A program made the translations under genes and the position numbers. Under the pieces are notes generated by a model, which was not told the origin of the DNA, ran no database searches, and saw only the letters and a program-made list of their open reading frames with translations. Shown piece after piece: positions 11,065-38,747 of a stretch of DNA of 64,000 nucleotides; the stretch's first letter is position 1; every line of letters begins with the position of its first letter. The stretch spans positions 43,455 through 107,454 of the IMG/VR virus record IMGVR_UViG_3300032242_002636; one strand, given 5' to 3'. Source of the DNA: a virus.

Positions 11065-11092
11065 ATTATAAACTATTATGAGAATAAATCAA
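11065..11092 (-). promoter_or_regulatory. sigma70-type promoter for thyX
   Basis: TTGATT-N16-TATAAT, 6 nt before ATG. Confidence 0.6.
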
Positions 11093-13649: not shown

Positions 13650-13668
13650 AGAGAGTATTATACTCTCT
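13650..13668 (-). promoter_or_regulatory. 8-bp hairpin abutting the polymerase start codon
   Basis: AGAGAGTA-TAA-TACTCTCT-ATG; the loop is the upstream gene's stop codon. Confidence 0.5.
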
Positions 13669-13686
13669 GCTCTGGGTTATTTGCAA
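13657..13686 (-). promoter_or_regulatory. sigma70-type promoter for gene 43
   Basis: TTGCAA-N18-TATAAT, 7 nt before ATG. Confidence 0.45.
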
Positions 13687-14971
13687 CTAAAATCTTTGAT
13701 TTAGCGTTTCTTTCTTTAGATCCCCAAGCGGTTGTGTATATTGCTTCGTATTCATCCATATGATTTTCTAACCATAGACCTTCTGTAAAGGTTCTAGCCT
13801 TTCCAGACAGATCCATATAGCGATCAAAGTCAGAAGTAATATACTCTAACTGAGAAATTAGATCCTTACCATCCTTAAACGGACATTCTGCTCCCTCATA
13901 GGTGCAAAGATCCTGATAAGCACCGGGTAATCCGAATGCTCCTGCCTCAACCATCTTGATATTGCTCTTGGATTTGTTGAATACGTTATCAACGAGAGGT
14001 GCGAATACTGCATTGGCTCCTACATCGTGAATACTTTGTGGAAGATCCATTAAAGGAGACCAATCAATGTATTCCATTTCACCATTATCAATGAATGGTT
14101 TGACTGCAAGTGGGTAGCATCCCTTCCATACAAACTTAAATTTCTTACGAGCCTTGATAATTTCTTCTACTACATGAGAGAAATCATCTTTCATCCCTGT
14201 ACGATTGGTTACATCAATGTGTGTTCCAGATCCAGCATAAAGAATACGAGGACGCTTCTTATGTCTGTCATAGAGTTCTTCAACACGTTTCTTATCATAG
14301 AAACGATCAAGCCAAAACTTAGGAGGATAGTTAGGAATGACTGTAATATTTTTATTACCTGTCTTATTGATGTAGTAATCTTTCATGTACTGACAGGTGA
14401 CAGTTACTTCATCCATCATTCCCATGATTTCTAAGATACTTGAAATGATATCTTGGCTTACGAATGCATCTTTACATCTATTATAGTCAGGAATATCATC
14501 CTTGAAGACGATATCATCGACTTCATAAATCAAACGATATCCCATCTGAGGCTTTGCCTTTACCAATTCTTTAATGAATGCATTCTGTACAGGTGTTGCC
14601 TGTCTTTGCATTCTGATTGCACTAATTCCTTGATAGAATCTAAGATCCAAAACCATACAAGTAAGTCCTGAAATGACTGCCTTGTTATAACTATTTAAAC
14701 AAAATTCGGGCCAAATCATTCTCCAATATCCACAGCCACCGTAATCAGCATAGTAATTGATAGCTCTAGGAAGGCTCATCTCTGGCATATCAATAGGAGG
14801 AGGCTCTGGAAGTTTTACAGGATTTGCGGCTACATAACTGTAGCTAGGCATACCCAAAGGAAGATTATTAGGAGCATTTGGAATACCGCTCTTGGTTGGC
14901 TTGTATTCGTATACAATGCTCTTTGAAGTATCTACAGGAGCAGGAGTATTAGAACCTTTTATCTTAATCAT
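13658..14971 (-). CDS. GT-B fold glycosyltransferase-like protein
   Basis: GGCGYWRM; MQRQ; YEVDD; VIPNY; APLVDNVFNKSKSNIKMVEAGAFGLP (GT4-like C-terminal motif). Confidence 0.75.
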   Translation of the reverse strand: MIKIKGSNTPAPVDTSKSIVYEYKPTKSGIPNAPNNLPLGMPSYSYVAANPVKLPEPPPIDMPEMSLPRAINYYADYGGCGYWRMIWPEFCLNSYNKAVISGLTCMVLDLRFYQGISAIRMQRQATPVQNAFIKELVKAKPQMGYRLIYEVDDIVFKDDIPDYNRCKDAFVSQDIISSILEIMGMMDEVTVTCQYMKDYYINKTGNKNITVIPNYPPKFWLDRFYDKKRVEELYDRHKKRPRILYAGSGTHIDVTNRTGMKDDFSHVVEEIIKARKKFKFVWKGCYPLAVKPFIDNGEMEYIDWSPLMDLPQSIHDVGANAVFAPLVDNVFNKSKSNIKMVEAGAFGLPGAYQDLCTYEGAECPFKDGKDLISQLEYITSDFDRYMDLSGKARTFTEGLWLENHMDEYEAIYTTAWGSKERNAKSKILVANNPEQRV

Positions 14972-14979
14972 ATTATTTT

Positions 14980-15008
14980 ATATTAACAAATGGTGTGTTA
15001 TAAATCAA
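14980..15008 (-). promoter_or_regulatory. sigma70-type promoter
   Basis: TTGATT-N17-TAATAT, 8 nt before ATG 14971. Confidence 0.4.
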
Positions 15009-16816
15009 GGTGCTATGGAAGTTTTACCGTCTTTCTTCTCTAACTTAATAATTGCATCAAAGTTAGAATTAACAGCAGCCTTATTATGAGATATGATATA
15101 AACAGCCTCATCATATTTGTCGGTTCTTTCTCTTAAAATCTCAAGAATTTTGTTAACTCCCTTCTCATCTAAGGCAGAATCAAACAACTCATCATACATA
15201 CTCAGATTGAAAGCAACACCTGTCTGCATTCTTAGTATATCTTGGAACATAAAGAGGATAGCAATGTCTATTCTCTTTCTTTCACCACCACTAAAATTGA
15301 AATAGGAACATTCCTTGCCTTGTGTATTGTAGATTGTTTCTTCAAACATCTCATTGAATTCACATGTACAAGGAGCATCAAGAGTTTTTAGATAGAAATT
15401 AAGCTGTGCATTCAGTACAGAAAGCATTTTCTTGACGATAAAAGTTTTAACACCTTCTTCAGATACAACAAACTTTGCAGTTTCTAAAACCAAAAGATGT
15501 TTTTGCAAATCAGAAATGTTTTTTTCCAGATTCTCTATTTTCTTTTGAGCATCTTCTATCTTTTTATCATCTTTGAACTCTTCCTTTTCTATCTCTTCGA
15601 TGTTTTCTTGATACTCTTCTATTTTTTCCTCTAAGGATTTTATTTTCTGCTCATGTAAAGCAGAATTTGATATCTCATCCTTATAATCTTTGATCTCATC
15701 CTTAAGAGTTTCTATGTTATTGGTAATCTTTGAACCGAAAGCAGTTTTTTCAGATCCTATCTTCTTATTTTCATCATAGATGGGTTGGTTAATAGAAATT
15801 AACTCATCTAATTTTTTAATTTCACTTTCAATATACTGTAAATCATCTTCACAATACTGTCTGTTGCAAGTAGGGCATACATTTCCCTTATCTAATATCT
15901 TTTGCTTCTCTTTTTTAGCTTGGTTTATAGTATTATAAGCTTCGGATTTATTTTCTCCTATCTCTACTATTTCTCTGTTTGTTTCGATCAATAATTCTCT
16001 GAGCTTTTCAATCTTATCCTCATTATTCTTTATCTTTTCCTTTAAAGAAGAAATTTCAGGAATGTCTTTTTTTCTCAATGAGGCTAAATCATTTTTGGTA
16101 ACATCAATTTTCTTATTAATACTCTCTATTCTTTCTGATTTGTTCTCATCAAATCCTTCCTTACTGTTTTCTAAAAACTCTAGTATTCTTTGTTCTGAAG
16201 AAAAATCTTTGGATAGGAATTCGTTTTCCTTTTTCTTTTCATTGTAGTCTGCTCTTGTCTTTAAAAGCATCTCACCAAAGATTCCAAGATTTAAAATACC
16301 TTCAACAAACTTTCTCTTATCAATCTTTTTCTGTGCCATGAAGGGCATGGTATTATTTGCCGTCATGATCACAGCATTTTGAAATACTTCTTCGTTTGCT
16401 CCTATCAGTTGCTTGATATACTCATCAGTCTTCGGCATCGTAGAAAGAGAAATATCTTCTAAAGATAAGTCTCCATACTTCTCTAAGAGAAGTTTACTAG
16501 GCTCCAATGATCTAGTTAATTTATAAGATGTGGAAACCTTGCCGTCTTCAATAGCAAATTCCAAAACTACAACAGAACCTCCTTTGCTTTGGTTGTGTAC
16601 TATCTTGTCCTTTTTAATATCTCTGATAGTAGAACCAAACAAAGCCCAATAAATTGACTCTATAAGAGAGCTTTTACCAACACCATTCCTGCCACCATTG
16701 TCTTTATTCTCTCCAGTTATCAGAGAGATTCCCTTCTTAAAATCTAAAGAGACTTCTTCTTTTCCTATAGATAGGAAATTCTTGATTGAAATACTATTAA
16801 ACTTAATTTTTTTCAC
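15005..16816 (-). CDS. 46: recombination endonuclease ATPase subunit (gp46/SbcC/Rad50)
   Basis: KNFLSIG; Walker A NGVGKSS; coiled coil with CPTC zinc hook; FSGGEKKR signature; YDELFDSALD; ISH. Confidence 0.96.
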   Translation of the reverse strand: MKKIKFNSISIKNFLSIGKEEVSLDFKKGISLITGENKDNGGRNGVGKSSLIESIYWALFGSTIRDIKKDKIVHNQSKGGSVVVLEFAIEDGKVSTSYKLTRSLEPSKLLLEKYGDLSLEDISLSTMPKTDEYIKQLIGANEEVFQNAVIMTANNTMPFMAQKKIDKRKFVEGILNLGIFGEMLLKTRADYNEKKKENEFLSKDFSSEQRILEFLENSKEGFDENKSERIESINKKIDVTKNDLASLRKKDIPEISSLKEKIKNNEDKIEKLRELLIETNREIVEIGENKSEAYNTINQAKKEKQKILDKGNVCPTCNRQYCEDDLQYIESEIKKLDELISINQPIYDENKKIGSEKTAFGSKITNNIETLKDEIKDYKDEISNSALHEQKIKSLEEKIEEYQENIEEIEKEEFKDDKKIEDAQKKIENLEKNISDLQKHLLVLETAKFVVSEEGVKTFIVKKMLSVLNAQLNFYLKTLDAPCTCEFNEMFEETIYNTQGKECSYFNFSGGERKRIDIAILFMFQDILRMQTGVAFNLSMYDELFDSALDEKGVNKILEILRERTDKYDEAVYIISHNKAAVNSNFDAIIKLEKKDGKTSIAP

Positions 16817-16823
16817 TTTTATT

Positions 16824-16851
16824 AGTATATACTAAAATAAAGTAATTTCAA
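16824..16851 (-). promoter_or_regulatory. sigma70-type promoter for gene 46
   Basis: TTGAAA-N16-TATACT, 7 nt before GTG. A 14-bp palindrome TTAGTATATACTAA (16822-16835) covers the -10. Confidence 0.6.
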
Positions 16852-17591
16852 CCTGATAGTATATCTTTATTATTCCAATAAAATTTCTCATTAGGATATG
16901 AATTAATTGTTTTAAATTCTAATTTTCTAGGTTCTCCAAACATTCCCTCTATTCCAGAATCGGTCTTAGAATATTTCTTATTGAATATAAAGTCTCTGTT
17001 ATATGCAGTATAGTGCATGATTCCTGTTTTAACACCACTTGGTTTACTTCCATCATGTGCATTAATAATCCCACTCATCATTGGTTTATGAACCTTCTTA
17101 CCTATCTCCTCTAGTCTCCAAAACATATCGGTATCTTCTTCTCCTATTCCTAATAATCTTTCTTCAAACCATCCTACCTTTTCTACTAATTTTCTATTAA
17201 TAAAATAATGCGACCAAGAACCATTTATGGCAAATGCTTCTGTATCTTTATGGTTATCTGCTATGTTAGATAAAGATTCAAAAGAAAAATTCCTATCTAT
17301 AATAACATCATCATTTAGGATTAAATTCCAATCTTTAGGGCTATTTATTAGGATTGTATTCCATAATTTAGCCAAGCTCCTGAATTCAGGAAACATAGAA
17401 ACTATGCAATTAGGAGTTTCACTTGCTAGTTTCAATATTTTTTTCCTATAGTCTTCATCAATAGGTTGATTGTACTCTCCGTTAACAGCAAGTATTATAG
17501 TCCAATTACCTCTTTCTCTTATAGAAGATATTAGATTTTTAACTCTTTCAAATCTGGCTTTAAAGGTTGTTATTCCTATTGCAAAACTCAT
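16848..17591 (-). CDS. GT-A (GT2-like) glycosyltransferase
   Basis: IGITTF; LAKLWN; LILNDDV; VGWFEERLLGIGEEDTD. Confidence 0.8.
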   Translation of the reverse strand: MSFAIGITTFKARFERVKNLISSIRERGNWTIILAVNGEYNQPIDEDYRKKILKLASETPNCIVSMFPEFRSLAKLWNTILINSPKDWNLILNDDVIIDRNFSFESLSNIADNHKDTEAFAINGSWSHYFINRKLVEKVGWFEERLLGIGEEDTDMFWRLEEIGKKVHKPMMSGIINAHDGSKPSGVKTGIMHYTAYNRDFIFNKKYSKTDSGIEGMFGEPRKLEFKTINSYPNEKFYWNNKDILSG

Positions 17592-18483
17592 AAAACTTAT
17601 TTAGCACAGCATCGAATCTTTGGATTGATGTATGATTGTTTAAAACATTTTGATAGCCATTATTTGCTATTCTTTCTCTTTCTTTATCGTTCTTGGAATA
17701 GAAGTTTATTTTTTCTATGGCATCTTCCATGCTATCGTAAAAAACAATATCCTCTCCATCGGTAAAGAGCGTGTCTAATCCTCTTTCAAAAGGAAGTCTG
17801 TCTGTCATCACCATTCTTTTACAATACATTCCTTCAAATATTCTTCTGGAAACTTCTCCGTATCTACTATTTTGAATTACAATTTTTCCTGTGCTAAGAA
17901 GATCTCTCTGTAGAATATTAAAGTCTCTTTTATTAGAGAATCTATTGCCTATTCTTGATTTAAGCTCATCTAGAAATGGTGTGTCTCCGTCTCCTCGTGT
18001 GCTTACGACATCATATGTTGGTTTGATATCAGGATTTTCTGAACCTTCTAATGCATCTGCAAAGTGTGTCCAGTAAATTGCATCTATATCTCTCTTTTTA
18101 TACTCCTGTAATGAAACCAAATCAGGAGTCAGAACAAGATCAAAGTTCCATGCCTTATTAGAATTGTTACCAAAGCACTGAGGATCGTCTCCAGCTTCCA
18201 TTACGGTATAGATGTCTGGAAAGTATTGCCTATCAAGTAAGGGATGATTAAAAGCTCCATAATCCATATGGAAGATTATGTCTGGTTTATATTGACCACT
18301 TTGTATATGTTGGTATAAAGCAGTCAATCCAGATATTGAATACTGTTTATTCCTGTCATATAAAGAATATATACGACCTTTTATATTTCTTCTCTTGGAT
18401 TCATTAACTATGGAGAGGGGAGTAGACCATCTCTCATCAGGCATCCATGCAAAAAGAAAAGCTATGTTAAGATTATTTTCCAT
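17560..18483 (-). CDS. GT-B glycosyltransferase (CgeB/Glyco_trans_1_2-like)
   Basis: GDDPQ; SRRIFEGMYC; LFTDGEDIVFY; RERIANNGYQNVLNNHT. Confidence 0.85.
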   Translation of the reverse strand: MENNLNIAFLFAWMPDERWSTPLSIVNESKRRNIKGRIYSLYDRNKQYSISGLTALYQHIQSGQYKPDIIFHMDYGAFNHPLLDRQYFPDIYTVMEAGDDPQCFGNNSNKAWNFDLVLTPDLVSLQEYKKRDIDAIYWTHFADALEGSENPDIKPTYDVVSTRGDGDTPFLDELKSRIGNRFSNKRDFNILQRDLLSTGKIVIQNSRYGEVSRRIFEGMYCKRMVMTDRLPFERGLDTLFTDGEDIVFYDSMEDAIEKINFYSKNDKERERIANNGYQNVLNNHTSIQRFDAVLNKFYEFCNRNNNL

Positions 18484-19204
18484 CTATTCTATCATGACAG
18501 AATAATCCATCACCTGTTATTACATTAAAATCTTGATTACTCCACCAAGATGTTGCTGCTGTTTCTATGTCTGTATTATCAATACAGAATTGAGGAATGA
18601 TATGCTTCTTATAAAAGTCCCTTCTAAAGATACAGGGATTGTTTGTAAAGTTAGCATTGGCTGATTTGAATTTATACCATATAGGAGATTCACTTATCTT
18701 CTTACAGTATTCAGGAAAATCTAAATCGGGTGTATCTCTCCAGTGTGTACATTCTGCCAAATGAGTCATGCATCTGTGTTCTTGACCAGTAAACCAAGAT
18801 GAATACAAAGGATTACCGGGATTTTTTCTATGTCTGAGTCTTGCAACATCCGCTATTTCATTGTTTATTAATTCTGTTCCTGTTTTTAAAATATCTATTA
18901 CTTTCTGTTTATCTTTTTCTATGAGAAAAAAATCATCTTCCAATAAAAGAATATTATTAGATATACAATTTTCTACAAGCCATTTAAAACCAGCGGCTAT
19001 CCATTTATTACTATCTGCTACATAAGTTTCTACATTAAAATCCTTGAGAACATCAACAGTCTCTTTTACTAAAGAAGAAGGATTAACATATACACTAATC
19101 TGTTTGAATTCTTCATTAATACCCTTTTCAAAAATACTGTTTAATGTATTTCTAAGAGTATTTGGAGCATTATAAGTTAAAATTCCTAAAGTTAAATCAT
19201 TCAT
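18473..19204 (-). CDS. GT-A glycosyltransferase-like protein
   Basis: LGILTYN; ILLLEDDF; FTNNPCIFR; C-terminal H-D. Confidence 0.75.
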   Translation of the reverse strand: MNDLTLGILTYNAPNTLRNTLNSIFEKGINEEFKQISVYVNPSSLVKETVDVLKDFNVETYVADSNKWIAAGFKWLVENCISNNILLLEDDFFLIEKDKQKVIDILKTGTELINNEIADVARLRHRKNPGNPLYSSWFTGQEHRCMTHLAECTHWRDTPDLDFPEYCKKISESPIWYKFKSANANFTNNPCIFRRDFYKKHIIPQFCIDNTDIETAATSWWSNQDFNVITGDGLFCHDRIDGK

Positions 19205-20460
19205 AGAGGTGTTGTAGTGATATCGTCATTATAGATATATGTATGAATGACTTTATCTATATGATACTCTGTTTTAGCCTCTTTTGCAAGTTGTTCTGCC
19301 CAAAACCAATCTTCTGAATAGTTCTTATCACTAAAAGTATATTTTTTTCCTAATTCAGATTTCCATGCACATACATGGAAAGGAACTCTGTTAATATATC
19401 CATCGGGATAATACTCTTCATTAATTTTATTGTTAAGAGAAAAGTTTATAACCGATACTGGTTTGTCATTTACATAGCAATATTGTTTGAACGTAACAAC
19501 ATCAGGATTATGTTTTATTCCTTCTAGGAGTGAATCTACATAATCATCAGATATATCATCATCATCATCTACGAATGCCATGTATCTTCCGTTAGCCATC
19601 TGAACCAATGTTTCTCTTTTGGCTCCTATACTTCTCTTCCTATTATCAAGGAAAACAAGATGCTCTACTTTTTTATCTCCTATTTGGTTTTTTATCTTCT
19701 CTATCAGTTTTTTAAGATGGGAATCTACTCTTTCGTAAACAGAAGGTGTTAATATAGAAAGCAAAGGTTTATTCAAATCAAGATCAAATTTTCTTTCTTT
19801 TCTTTTCTCGTAGGTTTCTCTGTCTATGTTAAAATAAGATTCGTTTCTAATATATAACTCATCATAATTTGTCTTTTGATAGACAGGATGTTGATGTTCA
19901 ATGATGACTTTATCAGAACGATAAACCTTTTTAAGCTGAATGGAAACATCGGTGAATTCGTTGTCACACCAGAGACTGATATAATCTGGATGGTAGATAT
20001 AACCAAAGTGGTCATAGTATTTTTTACCTAAAATACAAAGAGTATTGATATTGTTCTGTCCACCATCGCTATACCAGAGAACTCCATCGGTATCTCTAAA
20101 GTATTCATTCATATCCTTTCGGATAATGTCATCATATCCTTTTATTACAGGAATCATGTCATCGGATGCTAGTAAAACTATATCCCAACCATTAATTTTT
20201 TCCATATCAGCATTAATGGCTTGCATCTTTGTTTTACTATTACCAAAGAAGTATGCAATCTTATATTTCTCTTTGTATGAATCTAATCTACTTCTAATAA
20301 TAAGATTGTTCATACTAGAATCATCATCATCCAATGAAATCAGAAAGGCTATCTTCGATGGATCGGTAGCCATTTCAATATATCTATTCAATACATTAAA
20401 AAACTTTTCTGGTCTTCCTCTAGTTGGAAACTTAATTAATATTTTTAAATTCTTATGCAT
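19201..20460 (-). CDS. two-domain glycosyltransferase (GT-A + GT2)
   Basis: N-domain FPTRGRP, LASDDMIP, LWCDNEF, EHQHP; C-domain LSILTP, SIGAKR, AFVDDDD, SEDWFW. Confidence 0.85.
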   Translation of the reverse strand: MHKNLKILIKFPTRGRPEKFFNVLNRYIEMATDPSKIAFLISLDDDDSSMNNLIIRSRLDSYKEKYKIAYFFGNSKTKMQAINADMEKINGWDIVLLASDDMIPVIKGYDDIIRKDMNEYFRDTDGVLWYSDGGQNNINTLCILGKKYYDHFGYIYHPDYISLWCDNEFTDVSIQLKKVYRSDKVIIEHQHPVYQKTNYDELYIRNESYFNIDRETYEKRKERKFDLDLNKPLLSILTPSVYERVDSHLKKLIEKIKNQIGDKKVEHLVFLDNRKRSIGAKRETLVQMANGRYMAFVDDDDDISDDYVDSLLEGIKHNPDVVTFKQYCYVNDKPVSVINFSLNNKINEEYYPDGYINRVPFHVCAWKSELGKKYTFSDKNYSEDWFWAEQLAKEAKTEYHIDKVIHTYIYNDDITTTPL

Positions 20461-20463
20461 ATT

Positions 20464-21006
20464 TTAACCTCCTGATGGATAGTAGTAGTAAATTGGTCCT
20501 TTAATATAGACTTCTGTTTTTAATTTTCCTTTGAGTGCTTCAGAAAAAGCTTTATCTTCTTGCCAAGATTTGTCTGGAAACATTGTATCAAGTGCTATTT
20601 CTCTTTTGATAGGATTTAAATGATTAGGACAACGATAATAAATGTCATCATTTTCAAACCAATCTTGATATTGAATGGAATGTATGAACTTTTTAGGTCC
20701 AATATTCCTTAAAGTTATAATACCTTCTATACCACAACAATCAGGATTTGACTTGAGGGCTTCCAGAATTCCAAAGGTATAGAAAGGGGAAACCATATCG
20801 TCATCATCAACGAATACTACATAGTCTCCCTTTGCTGCTTGTAAGAGTTCGTTTCTTTTTTGACCAATAGATTTTGATCCATTATCACTATTAGCAAGCA
20901 TTTCTACTTCACCATTAGACTGTGCTCTGAGTACTCTTGCTAAATTTTGAAATACATCTTTTCTACTGTCTACTGTAACTGTTAATATAGATAATTTTTT
21001 ACTCAT
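20464..21006 (-). CDS. GT2-family glycosyltransferase
   Basis: LSILT; SIGQKRNEL; AKGDYVVFVDDDD; QED. Confidence 0.85.
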   Translation of the reverse strand: MSKKLSILTVTVDSRKDVFQNLARVLRAQSNGEVEMLANSDNGSKSIGQKRNELLQAAKGDYVVFVDDDDMVSPFYTFGILEALKSNPDCCGIEGIITLRNIGPKKFIHSIQYQDWFENDDIYYRCPNHLNPIKREIALDTMFPDKSWQEDKAFSEALKGKLKTEVYIKGPIYYYYPSGG

Positions 21007-22007
21007 TTTAAAAATACATTCTCAAAGGTTTTTATGACTTTATCTGGTGTATATGCTCTGTAGGCATTATAATCAAAATCATCTACTATTTTATAGTCGA
21101 GTAGCAATTTTTCTAGGTCTTTTTGATTATTATATAATACTCCTTTATCTCCAAGCATCTCTATATGAGCCTTTTCACGAGAACCAGACCATGTAAGAAC
21201 AGGTTTATTACAAGAAGAGAACTCTGCGATTGCCATTCCAAAAGTTTCTCCTCTTTCACGAGCATGTATCATGGCATTACAGGCTCCTATAAAGCTATAT
21301 TTCTCCTTTAAATCTATTATAGGAGAGAAATAAATAACATTTGGATGTTTAAAGAAACCTTTTGTATTACAAAATATAAAATAGATATTTGGTTCTTTAT
21401 TAACTGTATTTTTGATGGCTTCATGTACAAAATCTATGTTGAATTCATTGAAGCTTCCTATTCTACCAAATACCTTTGCATCTAATGGAATGTTATGCCT
21501 CTCTCTAAATTTATTCCCTAACTCATTAATATCAAATGTATTTTCCCTAACTATATGAGGAACAAAAGGAACACTTCCATTTGAACAGTGAGTGGACAAC
21601 CATTGAGAAACAAACGCATATTTGTCTCCATGCACATGATTTGGATGTTGTGGAAAAACTGCATGAATAATATTTGTTGCCTTTTCAGAAAGATATCCTT
21701 CTGGTTCACCTGATTTTATTTGATAAACATAATCTATTTTGTTTTCTATAATATAATCTTCTAAATCTTTTATATGGGTTCCCAACTTGGTAGGAAATCG
21801 GATTTGAACAGAATTAAAAGCATCATCTACAGCTTTTTTAAAAATATCTTGAGACCAATGAGGTTCAAAGGAAGAATCAATCTTTTTATGAAAAGCCAAG
21901 AATGATTTATTACCTAGATACTTCTCATTTGCAAAGGCATAGTCTAGTAAAGCTCTGGTAGAACCTGCTACTGTAAACAATCCCTCATAGAAAAGAATAT
22001 TAGCCAT
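21003..22007 (-). CDS. GT-B (GT4-like) glycosyltransferase
   Basis: GSTRALLDYA; FRERHNIP; VFGRIG; HARERGETFGMAIAEF (ExFGxxxxE motif). Confidence 0.88.
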   Translation of the reverse strand: MANILFYEGLFTVAGSTRALLDYAFANEKYLGNKSFLAFHKKIDSSFEPHWSQDIFKKAVDDAFNSVQIRFPTKLGTHIKDLEDYIIENKIDYVYQIKSGEPEGYLSEKATNIIHAVFPQHPNHVHGDKYAFVSQWLSTHCSNGSVPFVPHIVRENTFDINELGNKFRERHNIPLDAKVFGRIGSFNEFNIDFVHEAIKNTVNKEPNIYFIFCNTKGFFKHPNVIYFSPIIDLKEKYSFIGACNAMIHARERGETFGMAIAEFSSCNKPVLTWSGSREKAHIEMLGDKGVLYNNQKDLEKLLLDYKIVDDFDYNAYRAYTPDKVIKTFENVFLK

Positions 22008-22010
22008 AAA

Positions 22011-23492
22011 TTAAAAAATTACTGAAATGTATTTCACTCCATCTTTAACTTCCTCTGAAAAACTTTCTATCATTTCCAAGCAATTTGATAGACCATCTTT
22101 CTTGTGATAGTTTTTACCTAGTTTTCCATTGACAAATGCCCTGAATCTATCACCATTCTTTAGGTGTAGATTGTTTTCTACCTGATTTGTCAATCTATGT
22201 TGGTGGGGAACACTATAAAAACGTCCATATGGGCTTTTATAGGGCTTTAAAGACTCTTTCTCACACCTTGCATAGAGGTCATCATCTTCTTTTCCCCAAC
22301 CATTGAACTCATTACTATATCCATTTACCTGTTTGTAATGTTCATTGGTGAATAAAACAACTCCACCCATGATTTTATCAGGGATATTAATATAATTAAA
22401 CTGACTGCAATGACTACTCATGTGAGTAGGTAAGGCTGGATAGCTATAATCAGCAAATTCTGGCAAAAGATCGACATCATGAAAACAAATATAATCAGAA
22501 TCCTTAGCAGAAGCAGCAAATCCCACATTATTAAGCAATCCTTTGTTGAAAGGTTTGTCATTTTGTTGTTCAACTACAATTATCTCAAAGTTTTCTACCT
22601 GCTTTGATACATATTCTTTTAATTTAGGTAATAAAAGTCTACGAGCAGTCTCTCTATTTCTATATGGAATAATAATTGAGAGTTTTTTTCCTTTATTGAC
22701 TAGTTTTTTCCTGCTATAGTTTGTTTGAAGGTGTATTAAACACTCATGCAACTGTTGAGCAGTAGGTTCTGGTACATCTATTGTAAAATGTCCCCACTTT
22801 TTGATAAAGTACTCGGTAGATTTTGCTACATTTTTTTTATACATAGGTTTATTGGTAATAGATGAGTTGTCATTACTACCTTCTATGTCTGTTAGATACT
22901 TTTCACTGTCTAAAATATCAGGAAAGAACCAAAAACAAGGTGCTACTCCCTTTCTAGTAAGGTTATAAGCGAAATCTACATGCTCAAAGGCATTCATGTA
23001 CTGTTCATCAAAGTATCCTAGCTTTTTAACAAGACTAGCATTGATATACATGAAGGCTCCTTGTGGATTATGGTAAAATCCTATCTTAACACCATCAGGT
23101 TGTTCTAATACGAACTTTAAAGTCTGTTCATTACCAGCAATTTTTTCAAAACATAGGTGATGTATACCTGTGGACTGAGCAGCTTTTATATATTGTTGAA
23201 ATATACTGGTATCTTTGATTAGAATATCATCTTCAATCAAGAAGATATGCTCCACATCACGCTTTATAAGCTCAAATATAGCCTTGTTTTTTGATTTGGA
23301 TACACCCAACTGCTTGTCATTGTGGATAACAACATCGCCATCTTCACTTTTTGCATAGTGATCGGTTCCATCATTTACAATAACAAGCTCATCTATCTCA
23401 TTTCTTGGGATAGATGCTAAACATTTCTTATAATACTCAAAACGATTGTAGGTTGTTATTCCTACTCCTATTTTACCGTATGTCTTTTCCAT
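22011..23492 (-). CDS. bifunctional glycosyltransferase: GT2 domain + GT7 (beta-1,4-galactosyltransferase-like) domain
   Basis: N: GITTYNR, VNDG, FLIEDDI. C: IIIPYRNR, VVEQ, FNKGLLNNVGF, FHDVDLLP, GGV, VNGYSNEFNGWGKEDDD. Confidence 0.9.
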   Translation of the reverse strand: MEKTYGKIGVGITTYNRFEYYKKCLASIPRNEIDELVIVNDGTDHYAKSEDGDVVIHNDKQLGVSKSKNKAIFELIKRDVEHIFLIEDDILIKDTSIFQQYIKAAQSTGIHHLCFEKIAGNEQTLKFVLEQPDGVKIGFYHNPQGAFMYINASLVKKLGYFDEQYMNAFEHVDFAYNLTRKGVAPCFWFFPDILDSEKYLTDIEGSNDNSSITNKPMYKKNVAKSTEYFIKKWGHFTIDVPEPTAQQLHECLIHLQTNYSRKKLVNKGKKLSIIIPYRNRETARRLLLPKLKEYVSKQVENFEIIVVEQQNDKPFNKGLLNNVGFAASAKDSDYICFHDVDLLPEFADYSYPALPTHMSSHCSQFNYINIPDKIMGGVVLFTNEHYKQVNGYSNEFNGWGKEDDDLYARCEKESLKPYKSPYGRFYSVPHQHRLTNQVENNLHLKNGDRFRAFVNGKLGKNYHKKDGLSNCLEMIESFSEEVKDGVKYISVIF

Positions 23493-24310
23493 ATTTCTTT
23501 TAGATTCTTTAATACTTCTTCTTCAGTATGATTGGTTTCGGTTGGACCTCTACCATAAATTACTCCAAACTTATTCTTATCAACAAATCTGTCATGATTT
23601 TTGAAAAAATTATCCATGAAATCCTTTTCAGATCTTATTTTACTTTGTTGATGATCAGGAACTACGTCTTTTACACACTCATTAGCACCTTCTACATCAG
23701 CAAACCATCTAAAAGGTGGATGATAACCAGCTTTGATGATCTGATATGTATGGTCAACATGCTCTAATGCATTATAAAACTGTTCATCCATCAATCCAAC
23801 TTCATTTAATGTATCTATATGATAGTAACTGAGTGCTCCTAATACATTAGGATAAAGAATAATCTTTGTTTCATCTGGATAATTAATTATTTTTCTATGA
23901 ACAGGATATCCATTACCATCTGTGTTATGATTTCCATGTAAACCAAAGTTAAAATGCTTTATACCAGTAGATTTGTATGCATTTATGTATAGATTGAATA
24001 CGTTTTTATCCAATATTTCTATATCATCTTCTACTAGGAAGATATGCTCACATCTACATTCAATCAAATACTTTAAGGCTTTGTTTTTAGCTACAGCAAC
24101 TCCTTCTTTTCCTTTTGTCTTTATGTAATGAGTATTACCATCTTCTGTAAAGTCTATTAAATCTCTTACATTTGACTCTGATCCATCATCAACAACCACA
24201 AAGCTTGCATCATAGTTATATTCAAGAGACTTATAACTCTTTTTAAAGAATTCTGGTCTATCGCAGGTGATTAAACCTATACCTATCTTACTTGGTAATG
24301 GGTTTTGCAT
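23468..24310 (-). CDS. GT2-family glycosyltransferase
   Basis: IGLITCDR; VVDDGS; GVAVAKN; FLVEDDI; VGLMDEQF; EHVD. Confidence 0.88.
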   Translation of the reverse strand: MQNPLPSKIGIGLITCDRPEFFKKSYKSLEYNYDASFVVVDDGSESNVRDLIDFTEDGNTHYIKTKGKEGVAVAKNKALKYLIECRCEHIFLVEDDIEILDKNVFNLYINAYKSTGIKHFNFGLHGNHNTDGNGYPVHRKIINYPDETKIILYPNVLGALSYYHIDTLNEVGLMDEQFYNALEHVDHTYQIIKAGYHPPFRWFADVEGANECVKDVVPDHQQSKIRSEKDFMDNFFKNHDRFVDKNKFGVIYGRGPTETNHTEEEVLKNLKEIWKRHTVK

Positions 24311-25049
24311 AATTTTTCTGTAAAGTCTCTAAGAAGGAAAGTAATTGCTCCTGTGTAATGCCAGCAGGATCGTTCTGACCGGGGATATACTTGTGATTGT
24401 GTACAAAATATCCATAGGAAAGACCTACACTACGATGCATATCAGGGAAATCTTTGAATCCGATCTTTTTAATTGGATGATATGACTTCTTCATACCTTC
24501 ACCAATGGTGGGATGATAGTGACTAGGAGGATATACTCCTTTCTTTCTGAGCTTTAGGACATAATCCATCACATCCAAGTCCTTTGTGTTGAAATATCTT
24601 TCATCAAAGTAACCGTTATTGGTTACAATACTAGAAAGGATGAACATGAATTCGCTATTAAGCTCTGGAGAAGCATGTAAAGTGACTCCACTCTCTTCAT
24701 CTTCCAGAGGTAAACTGTTTTTACCATCTCCCATGACAACCCAAGTACCAAAGACTTCTCCTAGTCTTATGGTATTCTCAAATATCTTTGGATCATCTAC
24801 TATTTGATTTGAATGTAACAAGAAAAGATATTTGTATTCATTCAGTCTCATCTGTGACAAGAGCCAATTCCTAAGAGTAGCCATAGGAACATCACCATAC
24901 TTCCTATAGTTTTCATTTACCATAATGTTATTCGTAGCAGAAGCAACAAAAACATTATGTTTTAACTCTTCTGGTATAGAAGCATAACAAACCTCAAGGT
25001 CTTCCTGTTCGTATATATCAATAATTCCTATTCCTATTTTGTCGTTCAT
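24288..25049 (-). CDS. degenerate GT-A-like protein (paralog of the two adjacent GT2s)
   Basis: KIGIGII, LRNWLL, GYFDERY and KKGVYPP align by eye with the neighbours, but the DxD position reads LHSNQ. Confidence 0.55.
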   Translation of the reverse strand: MNDKIGIGIIDIYEQEDLEVCYASIPEELKHNVFVASATNNIMVNENYRKYGDVPMATLRNWLLSQMRLNEYKYLFLLHSNQIVDDPKIFENTIRLGEVFGTWVVMGDGKNSLPLEDEESGVTLHASPELNSEFMFILSSIVTNNGYFDERYFNTKDLDVMDYVLKLRKKGVYPPSHYHPTIGEGMKKSYHPIKKIGFKDFPDMHRSVGLSYGYFVHNHKYIPGQNDPAGITQEQLLSFLETLQKNYAKPITK

Positions 25050-26101
25050 AATGTTAATTCTTTATATGTGTTGGTTAGATACTCTATCACATCTTCTTTA
25101 TGCTGAACGTCTATTGAGTTCACAAAATCTTCGATGTTTTTTTCAATATCTATTAAATTATAATCCACCTTTGAAGAATTTTCAATTAAATCTGTGTTAA
25201 TTGATTTATAATCAATTCTAAAAAACTTGGGAGCAAGGTTTTGTAGTTTGGCGGTTAATAAAGTTATCTTATCATTGGTTATCTCTTCGTCTACGATAAA
25301 AGATACCATGTTGTTAGGCACATTCTCCTTTAAAAAATCAGCATCTTGCTTCTTATTTCTCAAATGACTCAGGTAAACCTTTATATGTTTAGGAGATATT
25401 TTATTTTCTATGAATTCTAACTTCTCTGATTCTATATCCAGTATATAAACACCTCTTACCTGATCAACATCACCAAAATTCTGTTGATAAGGACTTCCTA
25501 CATAAACAATCTTTCCGTTTTTATATGATCTCTCATCTTTGCTGTGAAAGTGTCCAGAGATAATAAAAGATGACTTCTTTAAAAGGTTAGAAGATTCTAT
25601 ACCATGATCACAGACTTTAAAACTGTTCATATAGAAAGTCTGGATCTCAAAATGACCAAAACAAATATCTGCTTTTGGTATATCATCAATCTCCGTTCCC
25701 CAAGGAATAAGAGATATGGTCTTTTCACCTGCCTGTATGAGTAAAGGAGCCTTATCTACTACAACAATATTCTTCCATCCACCAAAAAGAGAAATGGAAT
25801 TTACATCAGAACGATCTTTGTAATAACAATCGTGATTACCAGCTGATATAAAAATCCTAAAGTCCTTTAAGATGTCAAAGAACTCATTAGCAGTAGCAAG
25901 AGTGTTTACGGATATTTCACTTCTGTTATGAAAGATATCACCGGGTATGATGATATCGTTGATACCAGCTTTGGTATAGGTTTTAGAAACCCACTTAGCA
26001 AAATTCAATACGATATCATGCCAAGTAGAACTATCCTGACCTAATCCTATGTGAATATCAGAAAAAACTCCTATCTTTTTACTTTTTATAACACAACTCA
26101 T
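25046..26101 (-). CDS. 47: recombination endonuclease nuclease subunit (gp47/SbcD/Mre11)
   Basis: SDIHIG; GDIFH; GNHD; GHFEI; SGHFH; YVGSPYQQNFGD. Confidence 0.96.
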   Translation of the reverse strand: MSCVIKSKKIGVFSDIHIGLGQDSSTWHDIVLNFAKWVSKTYTKAGINDIIIPGDIFHNRSEISVNTLATANEFFDILKDFRIFISAGNHDCYYKDRSDVNSISLFGGWKNIVVVDKAPLLIQAGEKTISLIPWGTEIDDIPKADICFGHFEIQTFYMNSFKVCDHGIESSNLLKKSSFIISGHFHSKDERSYKNGKIVYVGSPYQQNFGDVDQVRGVYILDIESEKLEFIENKISPKHIKVYLSHLRNKKQDADFLKENVPNNMVSFIVDEEITNDKITLLTAKLQNLAPKFFRIDYKSINTDLIENSSKVDYNLIDIEKNIEDFVNSIDVQHKEDVIEYLTNTYKELTL

Positions 26102-26727
26102 TCGTCTTTCTTATACATCTTAGTTCTGTTATTTTTCATCATGTTGTTATAATTTTCAGAAAACATCATGTATTCATTCTGATACTTCTCATGTGTTTCA
26201 TGAATATGCTTTTCCTTTTTAATTCTATTTCTGAAAGCATTAAATGCAATTCTAGTGAAATATGAAAAAGGATTAGTTCCTTTGGTATGATTATATTTCT
26301 TGGACATCAATGCTTTAAACATTCTAATGATTCCATCACCCACCATCTCTTCACGATATGAATAATTAATAAAATTAGGGGCATAACTTAGTTTATGAGC
26401 AATCTTGCTTACCATCTCTGCTAATTCATTAGAAAGAATGCCTGATTCATAATATTTCATAATCTGAGTATCAAACTCTTTAGGATCTACATAGAATTTG
26501 GTTTTATCAGCTTTCTTGCCTCTCTTTGGTTTTTCATTAACAACAACTTCTTCAATTACTTCCTCTTCAATTAGGTCTTCATCAACCTCTTCTATAAGCT
26601 GCTCTTCAGGCTCTTCCATTTCTATGTCATCTAAACATAGTGCTTCAGCCTCTTCTTGGGAGTACTCAATTTTATCTTCGTTAAGAAGTGCCTTCTTATT
26701 ACGATATTTCTTTTTCTGTGTAGTCAT
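26098..26727 (-). CDS. 55: late transcription sigma factor (gp55-like)
   Basis: YVDPKEF; LSYAPNFINYSYREEMVGDG; NPFSYFTRIAFNAFRNRIKKEK. Confidence 0.92.
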   Translation of the reverse strand: MTTQKKKYRNKKALLNEDKIEYSQEEAEALCLDDIEMEEPEEQLIEEVDEDLIEEEVIEEVVVNEKPKRGKKADKTKFYVDPKEFDTQIMKYYESGILSNELAEMVSKIAHKLSYAPNFINYSYREEMVGDGIIRMFKALMSKKYNHTKGTNPFSYFTRIAFNAFRNRIKKEKHIHETHEKYQNEYMMFSENYNNMMKNNRTKMYKKDE

Positions 26728-28114
26728 AATTTTCTAAATTGTATAATTTCTTGCGTTCATTTAAATGGAGTATACCATACTTTGTATTATCTGCAATATC
26801 AAATATATTAGCCATTGATTTAGTAGGATGTAAACGTAATGCTCTTCCTATTGATTGCATTATTTTAATCTTAGCTTTTCCAGCAGATGCAAATATAATA
26901 TTATGTAAATTGGGAATGTTAATACCTGTGCTGAATATTTTTGATATTGCTATTACGATAACATCATTTCTATCATTCATAAATGATCTTATCTTTTCTC
27001 TATCTTCAATATCAGTAGATCCTCTTATGAAATATATAGGTCTTTTATTATCACAAGTCTTTGTTAAAATTTTTTCTACTATTTCTCCATGAGCAATACG
27101 ATCAACCATTATTAAACTATTATTAGTTAATTTATTTGCTAGATTACAAATAATTTGATTTCTCCTTTCGTTATTGATTAAGAAATCTAATTCATTCTCA
27201 TAAGCAGAACTAGGAGTTCCAACAATTGCGGTGCTTGGTTTTGTTTGATGTTTAACTTTGAGAACTATTACTTTAAAGTTTGAAATATATGACTGATCTT
27301 TTAAAGTTTCAGTTTTCTGTTCAAAGGTTATTGGACCTAATTTACCAATTATATTCCATTGATCTATTTTAGAAGTTGGCATGGTTCCAGTAAATCCAAA
27401 CTTATGAGGAGTTTGTACAAATTTTAAAACTTTGTTTATTTCATTACCTCGTTTAAGTGAATGACACTCATCTACTAATAATATTTTTACATCAGCTAAT
27501 ATAGAAAGATCAGTCTTCTCACTCATTAACATTTGAGTACCTGCTACTATGATTTTAGCAGAATGATCTAATTTGTTATTACCAGACCATTTTGCTACAT
27601 CTTTTAGACCATAAGAGATAAAATCATTAGCAGTCTGCTCTACAAGCTGAATCGATGGAACGGTTACAAGAACCAAAGCATCAGGATCGTTTAAATTTTG
27701 TCTTATGCTTTCAATTAATCCTGCACAGATAAGAGTTTTACCACCTGCCGTAGGAATTATGGTGATTCCTCTGCCTTGTTGAATTGCGGCTATGATAGAT
27801 TTCTCCTGATAATCTCTAAAAGGAAGATTCAATGTCTTCACATTAGGTTCATTAAAACCACAGGAGAATTCTCTTATCAATTCCTTTGAAACATTATATG
27901 TATAATGAGAATTTTCTATAAAACAAATAATATCACCTGTCATTCCTACTTCAAACTTTCCTCTAGGTGTTATTGAATATAAACGACTAGGAATATAAGG
28001 AACATTTTTCCTGTAAGCAGGATTTGCTATAGAAAAATGCTCTCTAATAAGATTTAGAGTATCCGAATCAGCTGTTACCTGACCTTGTGTTTTTGTTAAA
28101 GACAGTTCTATCAT
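26699..28114 (-). CDS. uvsW: SF2 DNA helicase UvsW
   Basis: RDYQ; PTAGGKT; DECH; GFTGT; FSTGINIPNLHNIIFA; QSIGRALR; adjacent to uvsY. Confidence 0.93.
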   Translation of the reverse strand: MIELSLTKTQGQVTADSDTLNLIREHFSIANPAYRKNVPYIPSRLYSITPRGKFEVGMTGDIICFIENSHYTYNVSKELIREFSCGFNEPNVKTLNLPFRDYQEKSIIAAIQQGRGITIIPTAGGKTLICAGLIESIRQNLNDPDALVLVTVPSIQLVEQTANDFISYGLKDVAKWSGNNKLDHSAKIIVAGTQMLMSEKTDLSILADVKILLVDECHSLKRGNEINKVLKFVQTPHKFGFTGTMPTSKIDQWNIIGKLGPITFEQKTETLKDQSYISNFKVIVLKVKHQTKPSTAIVGTPSSAYENELDFLINNERRNQIICNLANKLTNNSLIMVDRIAHGEIVEKILTKTCDNKRPIYFIRGSTDIEDREKIRSFMNDRNDVIVIAISKIFSTGINIPNLHNIIFASAGKAKIKIMQSIGRALRLHPTKSMANIFDIADNTKYGILHLNERKKLYNLENYDYTEKEIS

Positions 28115-28826: not shown

Positions 28827-29768
28827 TTAACAATATTGCCATTTATATCCATATGCAGTTTTTCTTTTACCTAAACATACTCTGACTATTGCTTGATATT
28901 TTGCGTTGTTATCTTTAGCTGCTTCTTTTATAGAGTTATATTCCTTTAATAAATTTCCATTTAAATCTATTTTTTTAACTTTTGTTTTATTAAAATTATG
29001 CAATTTTTTTAAATGATTTATAATTTTTATTGTTTTTTTGGGTGATTTTCTGTTTATATGTTTTCTACCAGTATTTAATTTTCTAAAATAAATCGACCAT
29101 TCTTTTTTTGTTTTTTGTGGTTTTTTATTTTTAATTTTTATTTTTTTTTCTTTTTTAATTTTTATTTTATAATTAAAATCATTATTGTTTTCAAATTTAA
29201 AAATAAATTCATTTTTGTATAGTTTATTATATTCATAAAAATTGTTTCTAAAATATACATCAGAGAATTTTTCAATTTTATACATCTCAGTCATAGATGA
29301 ATATCTTTTAATTAAATTACCATACAAATCTGTTTTTAGTATTGGTTTTAATATTTTTTTATATTTTCCTAATCTATGGTTTTCTTTGTTTTTTAAACTT
29401 ATTTTTATCTTTTCTTCTTTTGTCATTTTTCGTTTAATTGGAGGTTTGTTTCCTCCTTTATGTAAATTTAAACCTATTTTAGAACCATTTAAAACATTTG
29501 AATTGTATTTTTTAATATAAAAAATTTCTCTTGAGTTTAGATCAATTTCATTACATTCTTCTAAAACTTCAAATTTATGGTTAATATACCCATATTTTTT
29601 AAAAGATTTAAAAATTAAACTGTTTTTATTTCTTTTTTTATAACAATCATAGTCTCTCTGAAAATATTTATAAGAATTCCATCTAGAACATATGTTTTTT
29701 GATTGTCCTATATAAATTTTATTATTTGGTGATGTTATTTTGTATATTCCCGTTATTTTTTTCATCAT
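28827..29768 (-). mobile_element. free-standing GIY-YIG homing endonuclease with C-terminal NUMOD1-like domain
   Basis: GIYKITSPNNKIYIGQS, R, E and N catalytic pattern; EYNSIKEAA...VCLGKRKTAYGYKW. Very AT- and Lys-rich. The likely start is the second ATG (29765). Confidence 0.9.
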
Positions 29769-30210
29769 TGTTACTTATACATGAAACCATATTTTCGTAA
29801 TATTTTTTTAAACTTTTTGGAGGACGGTTAATTCTAACATTTAAAATTCCATTATATGTATCATCTCTAAACAAAACATTATTTTCTATTTGTAATTTTA
29901 ATTCTTCATATTTTAGTTGCCACTTACAGGTACATAACTTGAGTATTGTTCTTTTAAAGTTTTCCTTACCATGTTTTTTAACATCTTTTTTCAATTCTTC
30001 ACTACTACCATAGTAATCTTTCCAATCTGAGTCGCATATTTTTTTTCTTTTTCTTTTAAATCCTTTCAAAGGTTTTAATTTTATTGTTTTTTTTAACATT
30101 TTACATCCCCAATAATATTTTTTTTCTTTTTGTTTTGCATTTAATCTTTCGATCAAATAGACAAAACCAAACCAATCTTCCAAATTATCAGGTATATTTT
30201 CCCATTCCAT
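29722..30210 (-). CDS. GIY-YIG-like nuclease family protein (start revised to MEWEN at 30210)
   Basis: FGFVYLI...YYWGCK; DWKDYYGSS; GKENFKRTIL; YNG. Confidence 0.75.
   Translation of the reverse strand: MEWENIPDNLEDWFGFVYLIERLNAKQKEKKYYWGCKMLKKTIKLKPLKGFKRKRKKICDSDWKDYYGSSEELKKDVKKHGKENFKRTILKLCTCKWQLKYEELKLQIENNVLFRDDTYNGILNVRINRPPKSLKKYYENMVSCISNNDEKNNGNIQNNITK
29772..29779 (-). promoter_or_regulatory. candidate late promoter TATAAGTA for the homing endonuclease
   Basis: One mismatch to T4 TATAAATA, 6 nt before ATG 29765. Confidence 0.5.
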
Positions 30211-30215
30211 ATTTG

Positions 30216-30231
30216 TACTTATAGGTAAATA
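30216..30231. promoter_or_regulatory. back-to-back late promoters TATAAGTA (-) and TAAATA (+)
   Basis: Each lies exactly 5 nt before its ATG (30210 minus, 30237 plus). Confidence 0.6.
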
Positions 30232-30236
30232 TAACA

Positions 30237-38699: not shown

Positions 38700-38704
38700 A
38701 AAGT

Positions 38705-38736
38705 TATTTATATTTATCTCAATAGGAAGGTAAATA
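38705..38736. promoter_or_regulatory. divergent late promoters TATAAATA (-, 38705-38712) and TAAATA (+, 38731-38736)
   Basis: Perfect T4 late consensus 5 nt before the fibre ATG; TAAATA 11 nt before ATG 38748. Confidence 0.65.
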
Positions 38737-38747
38737 GTCATAATCAA

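Follow-up and report, generated by a model that had tools for sequence, protein, structure and literature searches.

A hypervariable glycosyltransferase island at the gp47-gp46 junction of an uncultured clade of T4-like phages

Introduction

What does a T4-like phage do with nine consecutive glycosyltransferase (GT) genes placed between its recombination genes 47 and 46? The question is raised by the right-hand 64 kb (64,000 nucleotides, referred to here as the window) of a 107-kb virus contig from IMG/VR, IMGVR_UViG_3300032242_002636, which has an estimated completeness of ∼51%. The minus strand of this contig holds a replication and recombination module of the T4 type, in the order UvsW, gp55, gp47, the nine open reading frames (ORFs), gp46, a GT-like gene of 437 amino acids and gp43. 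Phage GTs are mainly known from the one- or two-step glucosylation of DNA, from seroconversion by temperate phages and from small virion-glycosylation operons of mycobacteriophages. Many GTs have already been described in pelagimyophages and cyanomyophages (PMC7029224), and both the enzymes themselves and the idea of glycan synthesis by phages are known. What is new here is how large the set is, its anchoring at one place in the recombination module, the division into a conserved core and a variable periphery, a paralogue that lacks the DxD motif and GT families of eukaryotic type; a literature search found neither a GT island at gp46|gp47 nor T4-like phages that combine GTs with sulfotransferases. 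The array represents one allele of a hypervariable island that is fixed at the gp47|gp46 junction of the clade. As to its product, we lean, with a little less than even confidence, towards a strain-specific glycan on virion proteins; the analysis of the locus suggests this reading, and the other possible acceptors are weighed against it below.

Counterparts of gp46 and gp43 in cyanophages, OM43 myophages and enterobacterial T4-like phages are ∼29-32% identical (gp46 ∼29% by tblastn, DNA polymerase ∼31%), and a megablast search of a 10-kb region against 50,697 phage records gave zero matches. The phage is an uncultured, deep-branching T4-like myovirus. The 'moraphage' lineage (PMC12619734) was considered as a description of this clade and was set aside, its abstract and the passages searched offering no tie to T4 or to this locus.

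The island and its variation among relatives

The array comprises nine co-directional minus-strand ORFs at 16848-25049, which are listed here with the two genes that anchor the island.

25046-26101, minus strand: gp47, Mre11/SbcD-like nuclease subunit (Pfam Metallophos), upstream anchor
24288-25049, minus strand: ORF9, 253 amino acids, GT-A-fold paralogue of ORF8 without DxD
23468-24310, minus strand: ORF8, 280 amino acids, GT2-type GT-A with an EDD motif (PF00535)
22011-23492, minus strand: ORF7, 493 amino acids, GT2-GT7 fusion (PF13733 and PF02709 above cut-offs; PF00535)
21003-22007, minus strand: ORF6, 334 amino acids, GT-B, GT4-like, the weakest call (PF00534, E 1.3e-5)
20464-21006, minus strand: ORF5, 180 amino acids, short GT-A (PF00535, PF13641; phrog_14775, E 1.7e-29)
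19201-20460, minus strand: ORF4, 419 amino acids, tandem GT-A (phrog_14945 over residues 5-211, phrog_8858 over residues 231-416)
18473-19204, minus strand: ORF3, 243 amino acids, GT2-type GT-A with an EDD motif (PF00535, 26.3 bits against a cut-off of 23.3)
17560-18483, minus strand: ORF2, 307 amino acids, CgeB-like GT-B (Glyco_trans_1_2; PF13524, E 5.8e-22)
16848-17591, minus strand: ORF1, 247 amino acids, GT2-like GT-A (PF10111, E 5.9e-6, just under the cut-off; phrog_29879)
15005-16816, minus strand: gp46, Rad50/SbcC-like subunit (Pfam AAA_23, SMC_N), downstream anchor

Adjacent ORFs overlap by 4-32 nt or are separated by 3-nt gaps; ORF9, the last, overlaps gp47 by 4 nt and ORF1, the first, sits 31 nt before gp46. 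This layout agrees with the first-pass annotation of the locus, which had been made from the sequence alone and had described nine consecutive, overlapping or closely spaced ORFs splitting a normally near-adjacent 47/46 pair. The near-adjacency is also borne out: gp47 and gp46 are separated by two small ORFs in T4, by one in cyanophage P-HM2 and by none in three related loci (L022, L074 and L078). Since only tiny ORFs split the pair in T4 and P-HM2, the insertion of 8.2 kb is both real and unusual.

A scan with gp47 yielded 197 related IMG/VR stretches encoding a relative, of which 80 were kept as loci. The gap between gp47 and gp46 in these loci contains no gene, one gene or from four to at least 11 genes, the maximum being a lower bound owing to the omission of islands longer than 10 kb from the count. 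Besides the three loci with an empty gap, twelve carry a single ORF8-like GT of ∼255 amino acids, several of them being duplicate contigs (e.g. L056-L061, L068-L071, L075 and L077). In near-complete genomes (177-227 kb) the gap measures 4.3-12.5 kb. A conserved core, ORF9-ORF8-ORF7, lies proximal to gp47, followed by a distal part that draws on ∼50 protein clusters and varies between phages. The Pfam families of the distal part in relatives include FkbM and other methyltransferases, a rhamnosyl O-methyltransferase, an NAD-dependent epimerase/dehydratase, GT47 exostosin, GT6, GT11, RXYLT1_C, TOD1/MUCI70 and further GT2s, which by their family assignments are glycan-tailoring chemistry.

One relative, L083, has the identical nine genes in the same order, with 64-84% amino-acid identity. 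The ratios of nonsynonymous to synonymous divergence (dN/dS) in this comparison are 0.08-0.21, with ORF9 at 0.08, and resemble those of gp46, gp47 and UvsW; dS is saturated, which makes the ratios approximate, and for ORF8 it could not be estimated. The array genes are under purifying selection. This selection, the synteny with L083, the several GT families and the sugar methyltransferases and nucleotide-sugar epimerase in the islands of relatives, together with the lack of a thymidylate-synthase-family enzyme described below, uphold the earlier proposal of a multi-step glycan pathway in place of DNA glucosylation in the manner of T4.

The island has partly grown by tandem duplication, since ORF9, ORF8 and the N-terminal part of ORF7 (ORF7N) are paralogous (ORF8 and ORF7N share 33% identity, E 3e-39) and ORF5 is likewise paralogous to the C-terminal domain of ORF4 (residues 234-408; 35% identity, E 9e-18). 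Exchange between strains is suggested by a near-identical contig (L001), in which the GT7-like half of ORF7 has diverged by ∼28% at the nucleotide level over 22000-23000, while the remainder of the 15-kb overlap is >99% identical. The same contig has a gene for an HNH/endonuclease VII-like protein of 188 amino acids inserted between ORF7 and ORF6 (L001:13286-13852, minus strand; window ∼22009-22184). The pattern looks like cassette exchange driven by a homing endonuclease.

The enzymes of the array

GT models in Pfam or PHROGs are matched by eight of the nine ORFs, ORF9 being the sole exception. The array holds 11 GT domains, nine with the GT-A fold (in ORF1, ORF3, ORF4, ORF5, ORF7, ORF8 and ORF9) and two with the GT-B fold (ORF2 and ORF6); Pfam, PHROGs, hhalign and Foldseek searches with AlphaFold2 (AF2) models together give this number and this mixture of folds, both as first described. 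None of the nine ORFs contains a membrane-spanning hydrophobic segment (maximum 19-residue hydropathy <1.0) and all nine proteins are predicted to be soluble.

ORF9 has zero matches in Pfam, PHROGs and NCBIfam. A profile of 34 homologues can nevertheless be aligned with the ORF8 family over its full length (hhalign probability 99.3%, E 4.6e-20), and the AF2 model (pLDDT 92.7) retrieves exclusively GT-A structures in Foldseek. Where ORF8 has the metal-binding EDD, ORF9 and its homologues have a conserved H/N-S-N; they also lack the nucleotide-binding D-G, and Glu116, Asp117, Trp103 and Arg68 are conserved instead. ORF9 is therefore either a pseudo-enzyme or an unconventional GT. It is found beside gp47 in related loci in 37 distinct copies (coverage >=85%).

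ORF8, the paralogue that looks catalytically active, matches phrog_2456 (E 3.8e-28) and phrog_1579 (E 5e-21) in addition to PF00535. ORF7 joins an ORF8-like GT2 domain (residues ∼1-250) to a domain resembling GT7 β-1,4-galactosyltransferases (residues 253-430), which scores 74 bits with PF13733 and 69 bits with PF02709 and matches human B4GALT7 (PDB entry 4irp) with an E value of 9.6e-26. The features that define CAZy family GT7 are present, H-D-V-D and G-W-G-x-E-D being invariant in 14 homologues, and each of the two GT-A domains of ORF7 carries an acidic motif of the DxD type.

ORF6 scores 25.2 bits with PF00534, just under the cut-off of 26.4, with E254-x7-E262 invariant across nine homologues; its profile found no match among PDB sequences. 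ORF2 has 65 metagenomic homologues, every one of which contains PF13524. ORF3 aligns with the ORF8 family at an E value of 3e-5 (hhalign), and single-sequence alignments of ORF1 and of the N-terminal domain of ORF4 with the same family were not significant; the assignment of these two as GTs leans on Pfam, PHROGs, the ESM Atlas and the structural model, the nearest ESM Atlas clusters of ORF1 being viral GT2s. PDB sequence searches with ORF1, ORF2 and the ORF9 profile returned nothing useful.

ORF4 consists of a phage-specific N-terminal domain and a GT2 C-terminal domain. Its AF2 model (pLDDT 78) superposes on K4 chondroitin polymerase (K4CP) of Escherichia coli over both domains (PDB entry 2z86, E 1.7e-13, ∼510 columns), followed in the Foldseek ranking by PmHS2 and LARGE1. 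An unattached polysaccharide, for example a lysis matrix, would be one use for such enzymes, and another would be the modification of host proteins or metabolites so as to commandeer the cell. ORF4 and ORF7 share the architecture of two GT-A domains with K4CP, PmHS2 and LARGE1, and the sequence points to no acceptor. These polymerases, however, have ∼600-700 residues against 419 in ORF4 and 493 in ORF7, with identities of 8-15%, and the two phage enzymes may add merely two successive sugars instead of polymerizing. An export system (Wzx, Wzy/ligase) is also lacking, a conserved core with a variable periphery better suits the decoration of a defined acceptor, and we know of no precedent in lytic phages. 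We regard a free or secreted product, or a host protein or small molecule as the target, as improbable.

Location, timing and phage DNA as a possible acceptor

The position of the array in the replication module would fit an acceptor closer at hand, the phage DNA itself, with the GTs building an oligosaccharide on a modified base and thereby evading restriction and CRISPR. The α- and β-glucosyltransferases of T4 and the arabinosyltransferases of RB69 and DLP3 glycosylate modified DNA bases. In T4 the α-glucosyltransferase gene lies in the same early neighbourhood as the array, only one gene from 47, in a transcription unit (55, a-gt, 47, 46) and beside an HNH homing endonuclease. The corresponding neighbours here include a second conserved GT-like gene directly upstream of gp43:

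26699-28114, minus strand: UvsW
26098-26727, minus strand: gp55
13658-14971, minus strand: GT-like gene of 437 amino acids between gp46 and gp43 (phrog_7162 'glycosyltransferase', E 1.4e-19)
11076-13649, minus strand: gp43, the DNA polymerase

The 437-residue protein has no match in Pfam or the PDB; motifs such as G-S-G-x-H suggest a GT-B fold. Its gene is kept across the clade (L048, L056, L057, L074 and others), even where the island has zero or one gene. Past the UvsW end of the module lie two adjoining homing-endonuclease-like genes (28827-30237, minus strand), encoding an I-HmuI/NUMOD-like protein of 313 residues and a SegE-like GIY-YIG protein of 171 residues.

The timing of the array also seems early. 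Two sigma-70-like promoter matches flank it:

25157-25185, minus strand: TTGAAA-17-TATAAT (11 of 12 positions, by consensus only), inside the 3' end of gp47 and ∼110 nt before ORF9
16851-16824: TTGAAA-16-TATACT, ahead of gp46

The first recurs at the corresponding position in L001, L002, L003 and L005, which are the closest relatives, and is missing from distant ones. Such matches are no commoner than in shuffled sequences (81 found against 92 expected), which qualifies the earlier statement that gene 46 has its own promoter. Matches to the T4 late promoter, TATAAATA, number 10 in the window where 17 would be expected, which is no enrichment, and none of them lies in the array. Of the 118 genes in the contig, 37 have a different motif, TAA[AG]TA, in many cases with a G or A before it, at a distance of 11-20 nt upstream (e.g. 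at window positions 30237, 33093, 40060, 46663 and 52061); most of these genes are structural, and the replication module has few copies of the motif. TAA[AG]TA is probably the late promoter of the clade. Within the array it occurs only before ORF1 (TAAATA, 13 nt ahead of the start).

Several observations argue against DNA as the acceptor. Given the completeness of ∼51% of the contig, absences from the whole genome were judged on four relatives that are 92-100% complete as well. The hydroxymethylase/hydroxylase of the thymidylate-synthase family (PF00303) is absent from the contig and from these four relatives; a control search detected PF00303 in 10 of 14 reference genomes. The glycosylated pyrimidines treated in PMC13326640, on 5-hydroxymethylcytosine (5hmC), 5-hydroxymethyluracil (5hmU) and 5-hydroxycytosine (5hoC), all begin from a thymidylate-synthase homologue (PMC13326640). 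Pfam assigns the nine ORFs to GT2, GT7 and GT1-group families only, with no family of the T4 α- or β-glucosyltransferases. T4 itself has two single-step GT-B enzymes together with the gp42 dCMP hydroxymethylase, whereas the array is mostly GT-A, forms a many-step pathway and is accompanied by no thymidylate-synthase homologue.

The DNA of the contig, again in contrast to T4, strongly avoids restriction-type sites: GGCC occurs seven times against 43 expected and CCWGG (CCAGG/CCTGG) three times against 89 expected, and GGATCC, CTGCAG and CCATGG are missing altogether (19, 15 and 12 expected, respectively). GATC is not avoided (407 observed against 457 expected). Avoidance of the five sites implies, indirectly, that cytosines are exposed and unmodified; it would be pointless if cytosines were blanket-modified, which makes DNA hypermodification unlikely. 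Furthermore, the O-methyltransferases, GT47, GT6 and GT11 of the relatives' islands are unprecedented in DNA glycans, and the clade has members with zero island genes (L022, L074 and L078). On balance, we consider modification of the phage DNA to be highly unlikely.

Sugar donors, export and virion proteins as a possible acceptor

A glycan on virion proteins, the reading that we favour, and one on the host envelope are both compatible with genes that supply neither donors nor export. No nucleotidyltransferase (NTP_transferase) was found in the contig or in the near-complete relatives; an epimerase is missing from the contig and present in two of the four relatives, in one of them within the island. 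Priming transferases (PF02397, PF00953), Wzx (PF01943) and Wzy/ligase (PF04932) are absent from the contig and the four near-complete relatives, ABC-transporter routes not having been searched. Lacking all of these, the enzymes must use host nucleotide sugars, and the acceptor is either a non-lipid molecule or an intermediate primed by the host. The first-pass annotation had likewise seen no nucleotide-sugar synthesis, flippase or membrane-anchored GT, which the searches for NTP_transferase, epimerase and Wzx in the contig and the hydropathy of the nine ORFs corroborate; its deduction that a cytoplasmic acceptor is thereby favoured does not follow, as soluble GTs could act on the primed lipid carrier of the host and rely on its export.

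The best positive clue for a virion acceptor is the homology of the core to a GT family of the Che8 type. ORF8 and ORF7N match phrog_1579 and phrog_2456 with E values of 5e-21 to 8.5e-33 (ORF7N with phrog_1579, E 5e-26), two families that are also matched by a GT of 478 amino acids from a Cheoctovirus (Job42 gp103; phrog_1579, E 1e-286), and 537 of the 573 tblastn matches of ORF7 in cultured phages are to mycobacteriophages. Che8 and Rita, two phages of cluster F1, have glycosylated major capsid proteins, and their GT genes lie apart from the structural operon, at the genome's far end (PMC11256854). The soluble, phage-encoded enzymes of the array resemble these (cluster F1, Cheoctovirus) in lying outside the structural operon too. 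The differences are considerable: identity is ∼24% over the GT2 domain, the Che8-type phages have two or so GTs compared with nine genes and 11 domains here, they are actinobacterial siphoviruses and not T4-like myoviruses, a hypervariable island holding anything from 0 to at least 11 genes is not described for them, and the glycans on Che8 and Rita capsids were observed while those of the present clade are putative. A second parallel is chlorovirus PBCV-1, in which multi-domain soluble viral GTs (A064R, A061L and others) and methyltransferases build a strain-specific capsid glycan (PMC9614988). The PBCV-1 enzymes are multi-domain GT-A proteins that work with O-methyltransferases and without host secretory machinery, and the islands of relatives likewise carry FkbM-type and rhamnosyl O-methyltransferases; PBCV-1, however, is a eukaryotic giant virus, and the likeness is one of mechanism, with no sequence relationship claimed.

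A virion acceptor is also in keeping with the absence of a priming phosphoglycosyl transferase, Wzx and Wzy noted above, and with a sulfotransferase cluster that bears late-type motifs and adjoins a fibre gene rich in Ser and Thr. The relevant features, with a second candidate acceptor, are:

32188-33006, plus strand: sulfotransferase (PF13469, E 2e-10), with neighbours at 31257 and 33093
G000:C1:25026-25484 (window -18429 to -17971), minus strand: structural-region protein of 152 amino acids that includes a mucin-like stretch rich in Thr and Pro

Homologues of the sulfotransferase occur in two of the four near-complete relatives. The adjoining fibre protein of 1003 residues (26% Ser+Thr), encoded at window positions 35736-38747, is a candidate acceptor by its composition, and the 152-residue protein, with 42% Ser+Thr over 40 residues, is a candidate target of O-glycosylation or a candidate decoration protein. 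The genes at 31257 and 33093 have no GT match in Pfam or PHROGs, and the gene at 42537 matches PF13712 (E 4e-11); with the latter and the gene at 13658, the supported GT-like genes of the window come to 11, compared with the ∼13 counted earlier.

The nine genes form, in our reading, one translationally coupled operon of soluble, cytoplasmic GTs. If virion proteins are the acceptor, the ORF9-ORF8-ORF7 trio, drawing on host nucleotide sugars, would attach and build a core glycan, with ORF9 as a putative non-catalytic partner of ORF8. The distal enzymes ORF6-ORF1, including the tandem GT-A enzyme ORF4, would extend the core and cap it with a strain-specific structure, and ORF4 and ORF7 might each add two successive sugars or polymerize a disaccharide repeat. 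Capsid, decoration or fibre proteins would receive the glycan in the cytoplasm, either ahead of assembly or while it proceeds, yielding a variable glycan coat that may alter how the particle is recognized by hosts, grazers or surfaces.

Some points weigh against this assignment. The acceptor is inferred from homology at the level of the family, at ∼24% identity to the Che8-type GTs, and from absences, and ORF6 and ORF1 fall just below the Pfam cut-offs. The array sits in an early/middle module with sigma-70-like matches and has no late-type motif across ORF9-ORF2, a timing that fits targets on the host surface or DNA at least as well. Soluble or peripheral GTs are normal in the assembly of lipid-linked O-antigen and capsule, where the host could supply both priming and export. 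Finally, comparable GT sets of pelagimyophages were read by their authors as modifiers of the host O-chain (PMC7029224).

Host surface as a possible acceptor

The last three points describe an alternative, in which host-primed, lipid-linked intermediates of lipopolysaccharide, O-antigen or capsule are the substrates of the soluble GTs, on the cytoplasmic side of the host membrane; a host flippase and ligase would export the altered glycan, and an early change of the surface would block superinfection by competing phages or the trapping of progeny. Nine GT genes without a membrane segment fit a soluble or peripheral set of linkage-specific enzymes, the families are of the O-antigen type (GT2 and GT4-like, with GT11 and GT6 in relatives) and the hypervariability is like that of O-antigen loci. 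The NCBIfam searches gave sub-threshold near-matches only, to polysaccharide enzymes (TuaG, EpsD and a rhamnosyltransferase), all far below the cut-offs.

The pelagimyophage and cyanomyophage sets are similar in belonging to T4-like myoviruses of marine and fresh waters, with many GTs, hypervariable regions and clusters of two or three (PMC7029224). Most GTs of the pelagimyophages, by contrast, belong to a 'host recognition cluster' located between the VrlC gene and gp14, with GT8 as the most frequent family (PMC7029224), whereas the present island lies at gp47|gp46 in the replication module, consists of GT2, GT7 and GT4-like enzymes and belongs to a phage with a DNA polymerase ∼31% identical to that of any cultured phage. 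The characterized phage relatives of the core family come from phages with glycosylated virions (PMC11256854). The lack of the priming, flippase and polymerase/ligase families also counts against a host-surface target, as does the lack of a GtrABC-like membrane GT, all nine ORFs being without a membrane segment. Such a GT is the usual seroconversion machinery of phages. Building and exporting a new glycan in 9-11 steps within a lytic cycle would moreover be demanding. We consider remodelling of the host envelope less likely than not, though the strongest of the alternatives to a virion acceptor; a small share of the probability is assigned to none of the readings weighed here.

A scan of genome contigs bears weakly on the hosts of the clade: it turned up no more than two GT8-like genes, each of them on a large contig that resembles a phage. 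One of these contigs was binned with a metagenome-assembled genome (MAG) of the Cyclobacteriaceae, a weak lead to a Bacteroidota host that was not used as evidence. The stretch concerned (L088:7353-14656) has an ORF8-like GT within a different cluster, together with GT11, GT10-like, GT2, GT2/7C, MptE/Maf-like, cytidylyltransferase-like and class-III aminotransferase genes and an adjoining RNA-ligase-like gene; it is probably phage DNA.

Implications

In this clade of T4-like phages, which are aquatic, abundant and uncultured, an island resembling a serotype locus is maintained at a single junction and is stocked with GT families that are better known from eukaryotes (GT7, GT47, GT6, GT11 and RXYLT1-like). 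A bolder extension of the virion reading, which we hold to be quite improbable, is a sulfated polymer resembling glycosaminoglycan (GAG) or matriglycan on the phage's own particle, with ORF4 and ORF7 as alternating-sugar polymerases, ORF9 as a non-catalytic partner of ORF8 in acceptor recognition and one or more sulfotransferases supplied by the late cluster. Such a coat would be the first made by a bacteriophage, and the gp47|gp46 island would be its serotype locus. Should the host surface be the target instead, no device for superinfection exclusion known from a lytic phage would be more elaborate than the island. If, as we tentatively prefer, virion proteins are coated, phages would differ in glycan 'serotypes' along a major axis of diversity that has been overlooked, with effects on adsorption, decay, grazing and attachment to particles in lakes and oceans, and glycoengineering would gain in the island a compact set of soluble, linkage-specific GTs.

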